Source: Candidatus Aenigmatarchaeota archaeon
GTDB lineage: Archaea > Aenigmatarchaeota > Aenigmatarchaeia > CG10238-14 > SCSR01
Length of the DNA: 64,000 nt
Reading direction: 5' to 3'
NCBI GenBank assembly: GCA_038998335.1
Contig: JAVZHQ010000001.1
Coordinates: forward strand, 640,001 to 704,000
Shown: positions 9,547 through 23,633 of the stretch, piece after piece
Numbering within the stretch: the stretch's first letter is position 1
How the letters are laid out: every line of letters begins with the position of its first letter
The notes under the pieces: generated by a model
What the model was told of the DNA's origin: nothing
The model's database searches: none
The model's input: only the letters and a program-made list of their open reading frames with translations
Position numbers and translations under genes: made by a program

Positions 9547-10113
9547 CTAAGGTGTGACTCTTGATAAAGAATAATAAGTTACATCTCCTTCCTTATCTAC
9601 AACAGCCCACCACATAGTAGCTCTTATGTTGTGTGCAAGCCTAACTGCACGAGACATTTCTGGTAATGAAAAAGCAGCTTCCTCAGCAACTGCATGAACT
9701 ATTGCTTTTGTATGCTCATGAGGTGCTTTTGGTCCTCTCTTCAGTTTAACTCCTCTTTCATAAAGTCTAAAGTGAGCACCAAACTTGAAACCAGTTTTAA
9801 CAAGATAACCTCTATTCCTTAAGTCCCGATAAACTATAAATTGTGGATGAAATTGGTTAACATTTTTTGTTCCTATTTCTATTAATTCAGAAAGTTCGAT
9901 TTTTCTTTTTTTATCATTTTCTTTAACAAAAACTCTAATCTTTCCCTTTTCAAGTAAGTAAGCAGCCTCTACCAAATCCAACTCAAGTCTGTTTGGGTTT
10001 TCTTCTGGTAACGGTTTACCATAACCAGAATCATCGTAAAGAATTACTGCTTCAGGATCCCAAATTATTACTCTATTTTCTAATAGTTCACCTTCCCAAA
10101 CTTTTTCGCTCAT
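9547..10113 (-). CDS. endA: tRNA-splicing endonuclease subunit
   Basis: LVEAAYL, VYRDLRNRGY.VKTGFKFG..FRLY, H, AVVD.EGDVTYY. Confidence 0.92.
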   Translation of the reverse strand: MSEKVWEGELLENRVIIWDPEAVILYDDSGYGKPLPEENPNRLELDLVEAAYLLEKGKIRVFVKENDKKRKIELSELIEIGTKNVNQFHPQFIVYRDLRNRGYLVKTGFKFGAHFRLYERGVKLKRGPKAPHEHTKAIVHAVAEEAAFSLPEMSRAVRLAHNIRATMWWAVVDKEGDVTYYSLSRVTP

Positions 10114-10147: not shown

Positions 10148-10660
10148 TTAAATTTTTAATTGTTTCCTGCATTTTTCGCAAACATTTTTTGTTTTTCTGT
10201 CAACATCGAAAACAGTGTTTGAAAAACACATTACGCATTCTGGATTTTCACAGTGTTTTAAGCCTAAAACATGACCCATTTCATGTATAGCTTCTTTTAC
10301 TGCTCTTTTTATTAAAATTTCTTCGTTGTAAGCCTGTTTGTAAAAAGTGGGGTTAAGTCTTGCGATGGAAACTACAGCGACTCTTCCATTTAGCTGGGCT
10401 TGACCAAAAACAAAGTTTAGTTCTTCTGCGTACAAATCTTGGTCTGTTATACCCAAAATTCTTCCCTTAAAGTTTCTTGAAAGAAAGTCTAAGATTTGAG
10501 GGGCTATGTACTGATGTCTGTAAGGATTGTAATATTCTTTTGGTAAACCTTTTTCTGGAAGAATTTCTGAAATTAAACCAAATTCGTTTCTTAGCTCGTC
10601 TTTTACACTGTTTAAAACTCTTTCAGGAATTTTTCCAAAGGGAATTATTGTCAATTTCAT
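10148..10660 (-). CDS. amzA: Archaemetzincin (M54) zinc protease
   Basis: HEMGHVLGLKHC...CVM...C..C; LNFVFGQA. Confidence 0.92.
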   Translation of the reverse strand: MKLTIIPFGKIPERVLNSVKDELRNEFGLISEILPEKGLPKEYYNPYRHQYIAPQILDFLSRNFKGRILGITDQDLYAEELNFVFGQAQLNGRVAVVSIARLNPTFYKQAYNEEILIKRAVKEAIHEMGHVLGLKHCENPECVMCFSNTVFDVDRKTKNVCEKCRKQLKI

Positions 10661-10863
10661 AATTAAATAATGGTTAAAAGAATAAAAAGAATTAACTAGT
10701 TAAAATTTTTTAGTAGTTTTAAAACAATAAAAAATTATGCATTCAAAAATTGAAACTTGTTATGAAAAAATTTGTAAAATGGCAAGAGTTGCCTCAAGCG
10801 TTAATAGAGAATATGTATAAAAACTTATGGGACAGGAGGGATTTGAACCCTCGACACACCGGT

Positions 10864-10875
10864 AACCGCTTAGTT
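10864..10875 (-). other. 12-nt tRNA intron at canonical 37/38 position
   Basis: AACTAAGCGGTT inserted after G37; relaxed BHL-type pairing. Confidence 0.8.
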
Positions 10876-10904
10876 CTTCAGCCGGTTGCTCTCCCGGGCT
10901 GAGC

Positions 10905-10921
10905 TTACAGCACATTAGTGA
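10905..10921 (-). other. 17-nt BHB intron at tRNA position 9/10
   Basis: GGG[ACAG]TA^T-CAC-TAAT-GTG-[CTGT]AA^G-CTC is a strict BHB. Confidence 0.85.
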
Positions 10922-11711
10922 TACTGTCCCTACGACTGTCCCATTTCCTACATAATAAAATGGTTTCTAATTTATTTTGCTTGTTTAGATTTTGAAATCC
11001 TATCTCCTCTTTAAAATTAATTAATGAATTTAACCTTTTAATACGTAACCTTATTCCACAAGTTATTACCCCATCCTTTCGTACATTGAGTGTGTTTGAT
11101 ATAAATATTGTTGATTTTATATTAAAGAATTTTTCAAGACCTTCTTTAATCTCATTTAAGAATTGGAAACCATTATCAAGTAAATTTTGGGATTTCCACA
11201 TTTCCAAACCTATAAATGGGTTGTGTTTGCTGATGTCGACCGTGCCTTCACAATTGAAAACCATCCTAACAAAACTTCTGAAACACTCTTTTTCGTTTTT
11301 AATCCAAGTTGGTACAGAAAACTCTTGCATTACCTTACAACCTTTTGGAACCCCTACTAAATGAAGTACTCTACTCAACAATTTACAATTCACGCCAAAA
11401 TTGAAAGTTTTTCCAAATTTGTTTCCCTTACAAGGCCTCACTCTTCCTTTGATACCGAACAAATTAAAAATTTCATTTCCAAATATTTCTAACTCTTGGA
11501 GATCTTTTGAAGTAAAATCAAATCTCCATTTAGGTTCACCTTGGAGATGCCCATCACACATCAAGGCTGCAACTATAGATGCTAGTTGTGGAGAAGAACG
11601 AACAGGAAACCAATTGCTATGTAAATTAATTGAATTTATTGCATGATCTCTCGATTTGAATAACTTTATTACATCTTCTTCAGTTACTAAAATCTCACTC
11701 ATTTTTAACAC
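10905..11711 (-). CDS. Free-standing double-motif LAGLIDADG homing endonuclease
   Basis: Motifs LASIVAALMCDGHL and FVRMVFNCEGTV; no intein splice residues seen; ORF runs into the tRNA-Phe 5' exon. Confidence 0.85.
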   Translation of the reverse strand: MLKMSEILVTEEDVIKLFKSRDHAINSINLHSNWFPVRSSPQLASIVAALMCDGHLQGEPKWRFDFTSKDLQELEIFGNEIFNLFGIKGRVRPCKGNKFGKTFNFGVNCKLLSRVLHLVGVPKGCKVMQEFSVPTWIKNEKECFRSFVRMVFNCEGTVDISKHNPFIGLEMWKSQNLLDNGFQFLNEIKEGLEKFFNIKSTIFISNTLNVRKDGVITCGIRLRIKRLNSLINFKEEIGFQNLNKQNKLETILLCRKWDSRRDSITNVL

Positions 11712-11802
11712 AAAATAAATAAGAGATAGCCATTTATTTATCTTTCGAAAGTTTAGTTCCGGTAAGTTCTTCTTTTAAGAACTTAGAATCTCTACAAACT
11801 AT

Positions 11803-12483
11803 TTATTTCTTACCAAGCCTAAACTTTATTCCCTCTTTTATAATAAAAATTAATACCCCCAAAACAACTCTTACTCCTCTTATTATTCCACTTTTCTTCT
11901 TGTAAAGAACTTTTACAGGAACTTGTTTTATTTTAAGCCTATTTTTTAAGGCTTGAATAAACAAAGCATTTTCTATTATGTAGCCTCCATAAACAGCCTT
12001 GCTTAAAGTTTTAATTTTGTTTCCAGCTATAGCTATTAAACCACAATTTGTATCTTTAAAGCTAGTTCCAAAAAGTAGATTAAAAGAGTTCTTCCATACA
12101 AAATTTCCAAGTTTATGTCTAAAAGGAATTTTTTTAAAATCTCTATAGCCTGTAACAAACTCAGCTTCTTTTGCTTCTATCGGAGCTAAAAGTTTTAAGG
12201 CTTCTTCTGGGAAGTATTGTAAATCAGCATCAAGAAGAACAACGGCCTTGACATCTTTCCTTCTTTTCAGGAATTCAAAGCCTGTTTTTAAAGCTTCGCC
12301 TTTTCCTTTGTTTACTTCATGTTTTAACACTATGGCTCCAGCTTTTTTTGCTAGCTCGTAAGTTTTATCATGAGAGCAATCGTCGATAACTATTGGAACC
12401 ATATCAAGTTTTTTAACTCTTTTTACAACTTCATAAATCGTTTTTTCCTCGTTATAAGCTGGTATTAGACTAAAAACTTTCAT
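11803..12483 (-). CDS. Family 2 glycosyltransferase (DPM1-like)
   Basis: IPAYNEE, IDDCS.D, NKGKG.A, DADLQ, DTNCG. Confidence 0.92.
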   Translation of the reverse strand: MKVFSLIPAYNEEKTIYEVVKRVKKLDMVPIVIDDCSHDKTYELAKKAGAIVLKHEVNKGKGEALKTGFEFLKRRKDVKAVVLLDADLQYFPEEALKLLAPIEAKEAEFVTGYRDFKKIPFRHKLGNFVWKNSFNLLFGTSFKDTNCGLIAIAGNKIKTLSKAVYGGYIIENALFIQALKNRLKIKQVPVKVLYKKKSGIIRGVRVVLGVLIFIIKEGIKFRLGKK

Positions 12484-12729
12484 AAATAGGTTAAGAAAAA
12501 ATAAACTTTTAAAGGTAAACTTTTTTGATTTCAGCCCACCAATTTTTTCGATTGTACAGATTAAGAGTATCTATAAGCTTATCAAAACTTTCCTTTGATT
12601 CAAAAATTGAAGGACGAGAATCTGGCAGGTAAATATGAAAAAATTTTTTTCTACTTTTTGGGTTTTTAGCTCTACTAAAATTTCATAAACAGGTTCTGTT
12701 GCTTTTCCTTTTAAAAATGGTTAAAGTAG

Positions 12730-13272
12730 CTAAAGATTTATTTTTAAACTTCTCAAAGTATCTTCAAAAATTTTGTAAGTTTTTGAATCGTAAAGGAAAA
12801 ACACAACTCTTTCTATGTTCGTTTTTTCCTTCAAGTAGTTTATAATAGCTTCTAACATTATTCTTGCACATCTTTCTTTTGGAAAACCAAAAGCTCCTGT
12901 TGAGATAGCAGGAAAAGCTATGCTTCTCAAATTATACTTTTCAGCAAGCTTTAGGCTATTCAAAGTTGCGTTTCTTAACTTTTCGTCTTCATTTCCTTCC
13001 CCATAAACAGGACCAACCGCATGGATAACATATTTTACTTTTAGGTTTCCTCCTGAAGTTATTCTTGCTTCCCCAACAGGACAAAAACCTATTTTATCGC
13101 ACTCTTCCTGAATTTTTGGTCCGCCTTTTTTTCTTATCGCTCCTGCTACTCCTCCGCCAAGCTTAAGTTTAGAGTTAGCAGCGTTAACTATTGTATCGCC
13201 TTCGAAATCTGTTATATCACCTTGAATAAGTTCTAAAATGCTTTTGTTAATTTTTACTTTCATAACGCTCAA
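12730..13272 (-). CDS. Macro domain (ADP-ribose binding/hydrolase) protein
   Basis: GDIT, IVNAAN..L..GGGVAGAI, VIHAVGP, AFPAISTGAFGFP. Confidence 0.95.
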   Translation of the reverse strand: MSVMKVKINKSILELIQGDITDFEGDTIVNAANSKLKLGGGVAGAIRKKGGPKIQEECDKIGFCPVGEARITSGGNLKVKYVIHAVGPVYGEGNEDEKLRNATLNSLKLAEKYNLRSIAFPAISTGAFGFPKERCARIMLEAIINYLKEKTNIERVVFFLYDSKTYKIFEDTLRSLKINL

Positions 13273-13323
13273 AAATTTAGAGAAAAATACTGTTTAAATA
13301 ATTTTCGGTAAAAATTACTTTAC

Positions 13324-13833
13324 ATGAAAAAACTAACTACCAAACAATACGTTTCAATATTTTTTTTAATACTCCTTGCGTTTTTCTTTTTAAGTTTTGC
13401 AGAAATAGCAGTAGAAGGTCCTTATGGAGGAGCGACTAAGAGTTATGGTTGGAAGATTCAGATTTATGATTCTGTCTATCTAAGAGAGTATCACTTTTTT
13501 CTATTTTATTTAACAATACCAACACTACTTTCAATTTCTATAATCTTAGTTGGGTTTGATTTAAGATTAATCAGTATTTTAATTTTAGGGTATTCAATTG
13601 GTAGTATTTTAGAAGACTTTTGTTGGTTTGCTTTTAACCCTTACTACGGAATCCACAAATTTTCGCCAGAATTTTATACCTGGACCATTTGGATAAATGT
13701 TTTAGGTTTAAAAATCCCTATACTGTACTTCATTTACTCACTAATAATTCTTGCTGATGTTTTCTTTATTTTAAAAATAATCCCAATTATCGAAAAACAT
13801 AAACAAAATAAACCAGAAATGTTCGGATTTTAA
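13324..13833 (+). CDS. Hypothetical membrane protein
   Basis: 169 aa, about 4 TM segments, EDFCWF.FNP motif. Confidence 0.6.
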   Translation: MKKLTTKQYVSIFFLILLAFFFLSFAEIAVEGPYGGATKSYGWKIQIYDSVYLREYHFFLFYLTIPTLLSISIILVGFDLRLISILILGYSIGSILEDFCWFAFNPYYGIHKFSPEFYTWTIWINVLGLKIPILYFIYSLIILADVFFILKIIPIIEKHKQNKPEMFGF

Positions 13834-13838
13834 TTTAG

Positions 13839-13925
13839 CGCCCTCGCTGGGATTTGAACCCAGGACCTACCGGTTAACAGCCGGGTGCTCTACCACTGAG
13901 CTTTCCTCGTAATTACTACGAGGGC
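13839..13925 (-). tRNA. tRNA-Asn(GTT) with intron at 8/9
   Basis: Removing 13903..13917 gives GCCCTCGTAGCTCAGTGGTAGAGCACCCGGCTGTTAACCGGTAGGTCCTGGGTTCAAATCCCAGCGAGGGCG. Confidence 0.9.
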
Positions 13926-14676
13926 TGCGAGGGCTTAATATATTTTTTAACAACTTGTTTTCATCAATTAAATATTCTTCTATACTTTTATAGAATTTCC
14001 TTAAATTATTAGGCGTTATAACAAAAACTTTATAACCTCTTTGTTGTAAATCCTTTATCTTCTTTTTTAATTTCATAGCTTTATCAAAACCTTTCCACAT
14101 GCTACATTCTACAATAAGGTTACCAACCTTGAAATCTGGGAAATAATATTTTTTATTGACATTTATACAAGGTTCGTATTGATAATTTATTCCAAATTGA
14201 AATAATGTATCAGCAATTTTCTTTTCTAAAGTATTTCTGACGAGTTCACCACGTTTGGTTTTAAATTTGTAGCTTCCAATCTTCTTAAACCGTTCATATT
14301 GCTCTAAGAAATATTTTTCACCTAATTCTTTTCTAAGTTTTTTATGTAACCTGCTAGAAGCTTTTTTCATCTTAATTAGATTTTTTCTGAATGTTTTGCT
14401 TCTAACCTTCTTTAAGTAGCTGGCTTTACCACCAATCCTTTGTTTCCAGTTTTTATCTAACCGTTTTTGAATAATTTGCACGATATCAACTTCTTCTAAA
14501 CCTAAAAATTTCATGAGTTTGTTAAGAACATATCGAGAAATAGGTCTACCTTTATGTTTATAATAATATATTGCAGATTTCACTACATTTAAGGTTTTTG
14601 CCAACTTTCTTTCACTACCAGCCTTTTTTATGGCCATGTTAATTATGTTTTTCTGATCTTTTAATTTAAAATACAT
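13867..14676 (-). CDS. HTH + PD-(D/E)XK-type nuclease, putative free-standing homing endonuclease
   Basis: N-terminal HTH-like SERKLAKTLNVVKSAIYYY; C-terminal GELVRNTLEKKIAD.L...I.Y.YEP...YFPDF...IVE; very basic; reads into tRNA-Asn. Confidence 0.7.
   Translation of the reverse strand: MYFKLKDQKNIINMAIKKAGSERKLAKTLNVVKSAIYYYKHKGRPISRYVLNKLMKFLGLEEVDIVQIIQKRLDKNWKQRIGGKASYLKKVRSKTFRKNLIKMKKASSRLHKKLRKELGEKYFLEQYERFKKIGSYKFKTKRGELVRNTLEKKIADTLFQFGINYQYEPCINVNKKYYFPDFKVGNLIVECSMWKGFDKAMKLKKKIKDLQQRGYKVFVITPNNLRKFYKSIEEYLIDENKLLKNILSPRSPRSNYEESSVVEHPAVNR
13903..13917 (-). other. 15-nt BHB intron at tRNA position 8/9
   Basis: AGC[CCTC]GT^A-GT-AATT-AC-[GAGG]AA^A-GCT is a strict BHB. Confidence 0.85.
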
Positions 14677-23523: not shown

Positions 23524-23633
23524 GGGGTTGTCAGCTAGTCTGGTTTAGGCTGGCAGGCTCCAGTTTATCTGGAGCTATGAAAAAAGATGAATGAAGAAAC
23601 CTGCTCACGTGGGTTCAAATCCCACCAACCCCA
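23524..23633 (+). tRNA. tRNA-Trp(CCA) with 35-nt intron at 37/38 (23564..23598)
   Basis: Acceptor GGGGTTG/CAACCCC, GCAGG-CTCCAG[intron]A-CCTGC, T arm GTGGG-TTCAAAT-CCCAC. Confidence 0.92.

Follow-up and report, generated by a model that had tools for sequence, protein, structure and literature searches.

The DNA analysed here (hereafter the window, 64,000 nucleotides in full) belongs to a tiny hot-spring archaeon and contains the genes for tRNA-Phe(GAA) and tRNA-Asn(GUU), both on the minus strand. An earlier note on this DNA had described a tandem repeat of the 5' acceptor strand in the leaders of both tRNAs and had held that the copy is limited to that strand. Both observations were confirmed on the minus strand: the repeat is an 8-mer in Phe and a 7-mer in Asn, and its complement follows the T arm. 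The tRNA-Phe gene is composed of the following features.

10936..10942, minus strand: leader copy, 7-mer of the 5' acceptor strand, identical to exon 1 nt 1-7
10931..10934, minus strand: spacer CGTA, between the 8-mer leader copy and exon 1
10922..10930, minus strand: exon 1, tRNA nt 1-9 (nt 1-7 complement 10829..10835, then U8 and A9)
10905..10921, minus strand: intron 1, 17 nt, position 9/10 (hand reading)
10876..10904, minus strand: exon 2, G10 to G37, with D arm, 5' anticodon stem and anticodon GAA (Rfam alignment)
10864..10875, minus strand: intron 2, 12 nt, at 37/38, equivalently 10863..10874 at 38/39 (Rfam alignment and sequence)
10828..10863, minus strand: exon 3, nt 38-73, with 3' acceptor strand 10829..10835 and discriminator A 10828

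This is the sole Phe tRNA detected in the genome. Its leader 7-mer is the full complement of the 3' acceptor strand (10829..10835), which lies directly after the T arm and is the reverse complement of the proximal copy; repeat identity reaches the T at 10935, the 8-mer 10942..10935 being equal to the 8-mer 10930..10923. Intron 1 consists, in order, of a bulge nucleotide, a 3-bp hairpin with a 4-nt loop, the central-helix strand CUGU and the AA of the 3' bulge. Intron 2 is missing in the congeneric genomes G003 and G004, and a convincing bulge-helix-bulge (BHB) sought for it by hand was not found. The tRNA-Asn gene has a simpler layout.

13928..13934, minus strand: leader copy, 7-mer of the 5' acceptor strand, repeated at 13925..13919
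13926..13927, minus strand: spacer CA
13918..13925, minus strand: exon 1, tRNA nt 1-8, complements 13840..13846
13903..13917, minus strand: intron, 15 nt, position 8/9 (hand reading; Rfam match from 13902)
13839..13902, minus strand: exon 2, A9 to discriminator G73, with 3' acceptor strand 13840..13846

Here too the 3' acceptor strand (13846..13840) stands right behind the T arm, followed by discriminator G 13839. In the minimum-energy fold the leader copy is paired with 13840..13846, and the next C is able to pair with the discriminator.

Splice motifs, splicing endonuclease and rarity of the repeat

Removal of the 17 nt (Phe) and 15 nt (Asn) introns yields, by hand reading, a standard tRNA with U8-A9-G10, a 7-bp acceptor stem and a D stem. 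In the Phe splice motif G1-G3 pair with C11-C13 and A4-G7 with the intron CUGU, giving two 3-nt bulges around a central helix (hBHBh': 3-bp outer helix, UA|U, 4-bp helix, AA|G, 3-bp inner helix); when enforced, this motif folds at -39.0 kcal/mol. In the Asn motif C3-C6 pair with the intron GAGG (4 bp), and the 3' bulge AA|A is formed by the intron AA and A9. Its outer helix has just 2 bp, and the minimum-energy fold shuts the 5' site into a 7-bp hairpin, a relaxed bulge-helix-loop. That the splice motif draws on tRNA nt 1-7, as had been claimed, is borne out by these predicted pairings of Phe G1-G7 and Asn C3-C6. One further gene of the window is relevant here.

9547..10113, minus strand: splicing endonuclease EndA, 188 aa (PF01974 94.2 bits, PF02778 63 bits)

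EndA has one N-terminal and one catalytic domain, is the only splicing endonuclease found in the genome and is encoded downstream of tRNA-Phe in most relatives. It is the enzyme expected to cut the Phe and Asn introns. RNase P RNA is also encoded in the genome.

Among 45 Rfam tRNA hits of the genome a second copy of the acceptor 7-mer (at most 1 mismatch, within 70 nt upstream) occurs at two, Phe and Asn, which are also the only ones with an intron directly behind the 5' acceptor strand; the leader copy is absent at the other 43. The flanks of the tRNAs contain about 8% C and 13% G and the copied words are G+C-rich, and arithmetic from flank composition gives fewer than 1e-4 exact matches expected per 20-nt flank. 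Given this rarity and the G+C-rich words in G+C-poor flanks, a chance origin of both repeats is excluded in practice. Trailer copies of the 3' acceptor strand were also sought at the 45 hits, with no exact and two one-mismatch cases.

The leader copy among relatives

Relatives were picked by similarity to the window genes, so the 33 informative tRNA genes that share this intron position (Phe, Asn, Arg, Lys) are kin and not independent samples; 22 of them have a leader copy, with six distinct acceptor words, each accompanied by its own copy. Twenty informative Phe genes with a 9/10 intron comprise 10 with an exact copy, 2 with one mismatch and 8 with none. All six Asn genes with the intron have the copy. 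A search pattern was also taken from the junction of intron and exon 2, the copy not being part of the query; it occurs at seven places in 6 of 118 genomes, and the copy is found at all seven. Further copies precede Arg-UCU of G027, two Lys genes of G019 and a Lys gene of G020. The last surfaced in a scan of all loci for a repeat plus its complement, which gave many chance hits at one mismatch and served as a table of true cases.

The remaining 11 genes comprise nine with a leader complementary to the D-loop region (by inspection: G035, G076, G046, G029, G095, G283, G287, weakly G293, and Lys of G023) and two with neither. RNAfold predicts this leader pairing for G035 and does not for G046. 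At the window Phe and Asn genes, no complementarity of leader or spacer to the exon 3' of the splice site, of the kind that would extend the outer helix, was found. The check proposed in the earlier note, a search for the same duplication at other tRNAs with introns near the acceptor stem, is thus answered in part: the copy recurs in 22 of 33 genes but is lacking in 11. Since these 11 have their intron at the same position, the leader copy is one solution for such introns, not the only one, and it is not required in general.

Genes without the adjoining intron lack the copy throughout. It was looked for beside 13 intron-less Phe genes and at 20 Asn genes without this intron and was found at none, which together with the 43 other tRNA hits of the window's genome makes 76. 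Spacers range from 0 to 12 nt across loci and differ throughout in length and sequence, while over at least 10 genera all but 2 of the 22 copies keep the 7-mer intact. Twelve of the 20 distinct copy loci (for Phe, 7 of 11) have a repeat that stops at nt 7, where the stem ends. The copies of G028 and G151 have a mismatch to the 3' strand, which gives complementarity to the D loop instead.

Changes in the Phe acceptor stem are matched jointly in leader copy, exon 1, intron strand and 3' strand. Across 10 Phe genes, pairing amounts to 98.6% in the helix of leader and 3' strand, where 2 of 7 pairs have changed in both bases, and to 100% in that of exon 1 and intron, where 2 of 4 pairs have done so (compensatory). 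The covariation score was reached by none of 500 shuffles, and slid controls were 34-51% paired. In the G027 Arg gene every base of the leader word is a Watson-Crick match for the 3' strand, including the site at which exon 1 has U.G, and the exon 1 U pairs with an intron-strand A where the leader C would mismatch; as far as the sequences tell, labour is divided between leader word and exon 1. Selection, which the earlier note had suggested, is indicated: the copy is kept over genera, covaries with the stem and is confined to this intron position.

Predicted folding and a proposed role for the copy

Fold predictions, largely a restatement of sequence complementarity, give a probability of 0.72-1.00 for pairing of the copy with the 3' strand and 0.00 for pairing of exon 1 with it in 13 of 13 precursors (1.00 for the window Phe copy). 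When the leader is removed, exon 1 pairs with the 3' strand at 0.71-1.00, and the pattern is unchanged at 70 C. Without leader, the splice motif is predicted to lie above the best fold by 10.6 kcal/mol in Phe and 5.8 kcal/mol in Asn; with leader, it beats the fold with the real acceptor stem by 0.7 and 5.5 kcal/mol, respectively. The window Phe motif itself has a probability of only 0.37, its minimum-energy fold being another structure. With A7 in place of the copy, pairing of exon 1 with the intron falls to 0.00 in Phe (0.37 with the copy) and to 0.15 in Asn (1.00 with the copy). At 37 C the motif still exceeds P = 0.8 after this replacement in 4 of 13 precursors (G010, G019, G041, G024), at least for G010 as a result of pairing between spacer and D loop. 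A shuffled-copy control was non-discriminating, since the permuted words, being G-rich, continue to pair with the C-rich 3' strand. In these models, then, two proposals fare well: that nt 1-7 are under competition (a motif penalty of 6-11 kcal/mol without leader, lifted with it), and that the copy would pair with the 3' strand and free the real exon (predicted in 13 of 13 precursors). The folding check suggested in the earlier note gives different results with and without the leader, exon 1 being predicted to pair with the 3' strand only without it. The decoy reading of the earlier note is to this extent supported computationally.

A composition profile of 42 tRNA flanks displays no fixed TATA distance and only an A at -2. 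A promoter-like motif obtained by EM from the flanks of the other tRNAs, consensus AAGTTTAAAA, is weak and scattered from -60 to -11 in them; its best matches are located 76 nt (Phe) and 74 nt (Asn) ahead of the copies, and none of the six best-scoring positions is less than 36 nt from a copy. A+T-rich, TATA-like stretches are present 11-18 nt before the Phe copy and could place the Phe transcript start near exon 1. The best motif matches speak for transcription of the leader copy but are too weak to settle where the transcripts begin.

Taken together, we give a probability of about two in three to the reading that the copy is transcribed and acts as a surrogate 5' acceptor strand, which would hold the 3' strand and let nt 1-7 build the splice motif. 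Anatomy, conservation with covariation, the exclusive association with the intron position and the predicted energies all argue for it; we infer that the copy is transcribed and pairs in vivo, that it affects cleavage and that processing runs in the order given below. In the precursor the leader copy would pair with the 3' acceptor strand by 7 bp and one more with the discriminator, keeping T arm and 3' end in a tRNA-like helix. Deprived of their usual partner, nt 1-7 of exon 1 would base-pair both with nt 10/11-13 and with the intron's 3' part, and EndA would cut the resulting bulge-helix-bulge (Phe) or bulge-helix-loop (Asn). With the exons ligated and the intron strand lost, exon 1 could pair with the 3' strand in place of the copy, which RNase P would strip together with the remaining leader. 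The predicted surrogate helix has 8 bp and a stability no lower than that of the real acceptor stem; an extra driving force would be needed to release it after splicing. The copy probably arose when the first 7-10 nt of the gene were duplicated in tandem.

Alternative explanations and known systems

The same pairing could bring another benefit (3'-end trimming, CCA addition, nuclease protection, a first RNase P cut or blocking the charging of unspliced tRNA), with help in splicing as a side effect. The predicted stacking of the pseudo-acceptor stem on an intact T arm and the presence of RNase P RNA agree with this, as does the base at -2 from the copy, which is A at 18 of the 20 distinct loci, just as ordinary tRNA 5' ends have an A at -2 in 31 of 42 cases; at -2 from exon 1 there is no preference for A. 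However, such a benefit does not account for the restriction of the copy to introns that need nt 1-7, and the D-loop design of nine relatives leaves the 3' strand free and lengthens the outer helix of the motif, which makes this explanation unlikely. A neutral relic of replication slippage, or the footprint of a mobile element (target duplication), without RNA function, is disfavoured and in our judgement improbable: young-looking tandem units do occur (three head-to-tail units of 10 nt in G093), spacers of the Lys genes are 0 or 1 nt, and putative DNA endonuclease genes abut tRNA-Phe and tRNA-Asn, yet the 7-mer stays intact in 20 of 22 copies despite diverged spacers, covaries with the stem, is absent from the 76 genes lacking an intron at this position and stops matching at the stem edge in 12 of 20 loci. 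A target-site duplication or excision footprint was rejected, as no element lies between the copies and the repeats remain conserved from genus to genus, covarying with the 3' strand.

The copy might also be the DNA-level part of a mobile cassette, a recognition or repair site of the upstream endonuclease gene, with endonuclease, leader and 5' part of the tRNA spreading by homing. A LAGLIDADG_3 ORF, scoring 22.8 bits against a cut-off of 22.5, extends into the leader of tRNA-Phe; it has homologues upstream of intron-bearing tRNA-Phe in G001, G028, G029, G095 and G046 and none upstream of the intron-less Phe loci examined, and a second ORF runs into tRNA-Asn in the window, G001 and G023. We consider this very improbable nonetheless. 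Most copy-bearing loci examined have no such ORF in the flank, the Asn copy of G019 begins 8 nt past the stop codon of a putative aminoacyl-tRNA synthetase gene, three of five homologue-bearing relatives lack the copy, and a DNA site has no need to track the 3' acceptor strand. Finally, either copy can make the same acceptor stem, and the upstream one could be the true exon 1, with the proximal one part of a longer intron. This has next to no credibility and was rejected: the base following the upstream copy is not U in Asn (where it is C) or in 7 of 11 distinct Phe loci, so that the spliced tRNA would lack U8, and by hand reading no bulge-helix-bulge can be drawn for its splice site.

Non-canonical archaeal tRNA introns, known from Thermoproteales, Nanoarchaeota, ARMAN and other DPANN, are described in the available portions of three papers as short, protein-spliced, outside 37/38 and often several per gene; they are cut at BHB/BHL (hBH) motifs with 3-nt bulges around a 4-bp helix or a relaxed form, and lineages with an extra-loop EndA are rich in them (PMC3239211, PMC5829648, PMC4090602). 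The window Phe and Asn introns resemble these in being short and placed at 9/10 and 8/9. In contrast to the motif of exon plus intron set out in those portions, which mention no leader duplicate, the window genes add a leader copy, and their introns are so close to the 5' end that the motif takes up all of the 5' acceptor strand. In split and permuted tRNAs (Nanoarchaeum equitans, Caldivirga, Thermofilum, red and green algae) transcribed flanks pair into helices around the splice motif, according to the available text of PMC4090602 and PMC4033280. The D-loop-pairing leaders of nine relatives are of this kind, whereas the window leaders are predicted to pair with the motif's competitor strand and do not build the motif. 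Attenuators, T-box and other riboswitch expression platforms also have one strand with two partners, an extra copy deciding the helix, and they switch transcription or translation upon a signal; the window switch, in contrast, would be settled by an irreversible processing step. Literature searches turned up no account of a tRNA leader with a second acceptor strand, an earlier mention in tables of intron positions being possible, and there is none in the available parts of PMC4090602, PMC4033280, PMC5829648, PMC3239211, PMC8450103 and a 2026 Asgard preprint.

Introns near the stem pose a folding conflict, since splice signal and most stable tRNA helix want the same seven bases. If the surrogate reading is right, a stand-in strand in the leader is a simple RNA-only answer that explains the persistence of such introns in essential single-copy genes, and its predictions are easily testable with the 188-residue enzyme and short transcripts. 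More tentatively, at somewhat short of even odds, archaeal pre-tRNA leaders may contain an unrecognised class of selected cis-acting placeholder strands that fix the order of processing and are interchangeable with the D-loop design. Introns could then occupy an otherwise forbidden site beside the acceptor stem, splicing would precede the final RNase P cut, possibly with two such cuts, G028 and G151 would be single-base intermediates between the two designs, and the placeholder unit may spread with neighbouring homing-endonuclease genes. For annotation, a finder facing two equally good acceptor strands can misplace the 5' end. This matters here: ARAGORN missed both tRNA-Phe and tRNA-Asn, and the 5' ends given by Rfam are wrong or truncated, its tRNA model scoring 30.9 bits for Phe and 48.9 bits for Asn, the latter aligned only from model position 9.

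Two tRNA genes with a duplicated acceptor strand

The genome that holds the window is archaeal, 1.0 Mb in size with 33% G+C, and encodes an archaeal SRP RNA (Rfam); relatives' genomes range from 0.3 to 1.7 Mb, and the sequencing runs containing window DNA carry the label hot springs metagenome. The genes for tRNA-Phe(GAA) and tRNA-Asn(GUU) both lie on the minus strand. According to the earlier note, each has a duplicate of the 5' acceptor strand in its leader, which is confirmed by the following features.

Features of the two tRNA genes and of the splicing endonuclease gene
10942..10935, minus: tRNA-Phe upstream 8-mer, identical to the 8-mer at 10930..10923; a spacer, CGTA, separates the two copies on the same strand
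10930..10923, minus: tRNA-Phe proximal 8-mer, start of exon 1
10921..10905, minus: tRNA-Phe first insert, 17 nt, followed by the D arm
10864..10875, minus: tRNA-Phe second insert, 12 nt, beside the anticodon, followed by the T arm
10835..10829, minus: tRNA-Phe 3' acceptor strand, with discriminator A at 10828
13934..13928, minus: tRNA-Asn upstream 7-mer, followed by spacer CA
13925..13919, minus: tRNA-Asn proximal 7-mer, start of exon 1, followed by U8
13917..13903, minus: tRNA-Asn insert, 15 nt, followed by A9 onward
13846..13840, minus: tRNA-Asn 3' acceptor strand, with discriminator G at 13839
9547..10113, minus: EndA, 188 aa, with one N-terminal and one catalytic domain

Neither gene was detected by ARAGORN. 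Rfam matches both, aligning Asn from position 9 only and assigning Phe the wrong 5' strand; in tRNAscan-SE candidates are lengthened by 60 nt so that introns near the ends can be found (PMC8450103). A second acceptor 7-mer (at most one mismatch, within 70 nt upstream) is present at two of the genome's 45 Rfam tRNA matches, Phe and Asn only. Since the tRNA flanks are A+T-rich (about 44% A, 36% T, 13% G and 8% C), a G+C-rich 7-mer is not expected there by chance.

The splice motifs were drawn by hand from the sequence, and this reading bears out the proposal that the motif takes up tRNA nt 1-7 in both genes. The tRNA-Phe intron at 9/10 has the textbook bulge-helix-bulge form: G1-G3 pair with C11-U12-C13 and A4-G7 with CUGU close to the intron 3' end, U8-A9|U and A-A|G10 form the bulges, and the intron is closed by a 3-bp hairpin. 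In tRNA-Asn, where the intron is at 8/9, GAGG pairs with C3-C6 and A-A|A9 forms the 3' bulge, with a further pairing of G1-C2 to G10-C11 possible. The 5' site falls either in a bulge or, when energy is minimised, within a 7-bp hairpin, a relaxed bulge-helix-loop form. Non-canonical bulge-helix-bulge and bulge-helix-loop tRNA introns are established (PMC5829648, PMC3239211). For the 12-nt tRNA-Phe intron at 37/38 (10864..10875) no bulge-helix-bulge was found by hand; the 3' part of the intron is similar to the anticodon stem's 3' strand, in place of which it can pair with the 5' strand. This intron is present in relatives G001 and G002 and absent from the congeneric G003 and G004.

EndA is the sole splicing endonuclease gene detected in the genome. 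Its position is 0.7 kb downstream of tRNA-Phe, beyond a Peptidase_M54 (archaemetzincin-type) gene at 10148..10660 (minus). Most of the tRNA-Phe loci examined in relatives, some of them intron-less, also have EndA following tRNA-Phe. DPANN enzymes that share its single-unit form and have an extra loop have been associated with disrupted tRNA genes (PMC5829648). RNase P RNA is also encoded (137 bits).

Predicted folds with and without the leader copy

Without the leader, the real acceptor stem is kept in the best fold (P = 0.99 in Phe and 0.98 in Asn), and enforcing the motif costs 10.6 kcal/mol in Phe (-27.7 versus -38.3) and 5.8 kcal/mol in Asn (-28.3 versus -34.1). With the leader, the 3' strand is paired by the copy (P = 1.00 in both), and the motif-bearing fold beats the real-stem fold by 0.7 kcal/mol in Phe and 5.5 kcal/mol in Asn. 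Replacing the copy by seven A (the A7 control) makes both precursors revert to leaderless behaviour: exon 1:intron pairing drops to 0.00 in Phe (0.37 with the copy) and to 0.15 in Asn (1.00 with the copy); the same pattern is obtained at 70 C, and separate folds of both precursors by a fold tool agree. Folding thus predicts, as the earlier note had anticipated, that the copy pairs with the 3' strand and frees exon 1; in tRNA-Phe the motif is a predicted minority structure.

These computed energies are mostly a restatement of the complementarity of the copy. Because the modelled surrogate helix equals the real stem in strength, the hand-over after splicing would need an extra driving force, which tertiary folding or an irreversible RNase P cut might provide.

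Leader designs among relatives

Relatives were found by searching with both genes, with junction patterns that exclude the copy, and with Rfam in five genomes. Of the tRNA genes found, 33 were informative and had an intron immediately 3' of the acceptor strand. Their leaders hold the copy, a second design or neither; the second design was called by inspection, with the G293 leader only weakly complementary.

Leader designs at the informative genes (G000, the genome holding the window; G001-G293, relatives)
tRNA; genes; copy; second design; neither
Phe; 20 (plus G002, cut at a contig end); 12 (exact in 10: G000, G001, G003, G004, G010, G019, G024, G030, G041, G093; one mismatch in 2: G028, G151); 8 (G035, G076, G046, G029, G095, G283, G287, G293); 0
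Asn; 6; 6 (G000, G001, G019, G023, G027, G096); 0; 0
Arg-UCU; 1; 1 (G027); 0; 0
Lys; 5; 3 (two in G019, one in G020); 1 (G023); 1 (G020)
No isotype label (G019); 1; 0; 0; 1
Total; 33; 22; 9; 2

The leader duplication therefore recurs at other tRNAs with acceptor-adjacent introns, being present in 22 of the 33 genes; as the sample was picked by similarity and the genomes are related, these counts describe the genes examined and not frequencies in nature. The Asn junction pattern matched seven places in 118 genomes, each with a copy. No adjacent copy was found at genes lacking an acceptor-adjacent intron, namely 13 Phe genes, 20 Asn genes and 43 other tRNA matches of G000. The Lys gene of G020 that lacks both designs has a strict motif whose inner helix is 4 bp long.

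In the tRNA-Phe of G093 (L068, around 1455-1484) the 5' end consists of three head-to-tail 10-nt units, two leader copies and exon 1, and in Lys genes the spacers measure 0-1 nt; both look like recent tandem duplication of the gene's first bases. Across the survey 20 of the 22 copies keep an intact 7-mer, spacers differ in every lineage (0 to 12 nt), and the match ends at nt 7, the stem edge, at 12 of 20 distinct loci. Alignment of ten Phe genes gives 98.6% pairing in the leader:3'-strand helix and 100% in the exon 1:intron helix. Each helix has two pairs in which both partners changed, in the former from A-U to G-C; the Phe stem changes involve four sites altered together. None of 500 shuffles reached the covariation score, and slid registers were 34-51% paired. 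In Phe, the copy's match to exon 1 cannot be told apart from its complementarity to the 3' strand, but the two can be separated in the Arg gene of G027, where the leader word is wholly Watson-Crick to the 3' strand and exon 1 has a U.G at one site. There the exon 1 U pairs with an intron-strand A, which the leader's C would not, and this is the pattern that a division of labour between leader word and exon 1 would predict.

An A stands two positions before the copy at 18 of 20 distinct loci, as it does before 31 of 42 ordinary tRNA 5' ends, and exon 1 of copy-bearing genes shows no such preference; the copy therefore sits in a normal tRNA-start context. The first RNase P cut, or the start of transcription, may lie just 5' of it; a promoter search in the tRNA flanks fixed no position.

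In the nine genes of second design the leader complements the D loop together with the D stem's 3' strand, which extends the outer helix of the motif past G1:C13. The resulting long hairpin appears in the RNAfold prediction for G035 and is missing from that for G046. Among the genes with a copy, at least those of G010 and G028 have a spacer that also pairs with the D loop, and the A7 control leaves the motif in place in G010, G019, G041 and G024. In G028 and G151, the copies with one mismatch carry an A-to-U change by which one 3'-strand pair is lost and D-loop complementarity gained, and may be intermediates between the designs. The two designs point to one need, leader help against the acceptor stem for the 9/10 intron.

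Comparative and thermodynamic evidence, both computational, thus supports the idea that the copy acts as a decoy strand, and we propose it as a new accessory element of a known splicing system. For split and permuted tRNAs, pairing between leader and trailer is established (PMC4090602, PMC4033280); no description of a leader copy of the acceptor strand was found in the literature searched, which covered main-text passages of these two papers and of PMC5829648, PMC3239211 and PMC8450103.

Neighbouring reading frames and other tRNA genes

An ORF at 10905..11711 (minus, 268 aa) with a LAGLIDADG_3 domain at 22.8 bits (cut-off 22.5) spans the tRNA-Phe leader and both acceptor copies, its stop lying within the first intron. 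Homologues occupy the equivalent site upstream of intron-bearing tRNA-Phe in G028, G029, G095 and G046 (52-55% identity) and G001 (99%), and none was found upstream of the intron-less Phe loci examined. The product may be a homing endonuclease of the free-standing type, with a target that the intron interrupts. A second ORF, at 13867..14676 (minus, 269 aa), extends into tRNA-Asn up to the anticodon stem; it has a weak N-terminal helix-turn-helix match (18.9 bits, below cut-off) and similarly placed homologues in G023 (63% identical) and G001 (99.6% identical).

A third tRNA of the genome with an Asn anticodon loop (G000:C5:8886-8958, minus, on a 9-kb contig) has an unusual acceptor stem with T as first base, and may be foreign or viral. 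Two Leu genes have a 6/7 copy of the 3' acceptor strand in the trailer, one 3 nt past the discriminator (G000:C1:161539-161624, minus) and the other 13 nt downstream, which may be chance. The tRNA at 23524..23633 (plus) of the window has a 39-nt insert in the anticodon loop with TGATGA- and CTGA-like words, resembling box C/D motifs, which recur in several other tRNA introns of the genome.
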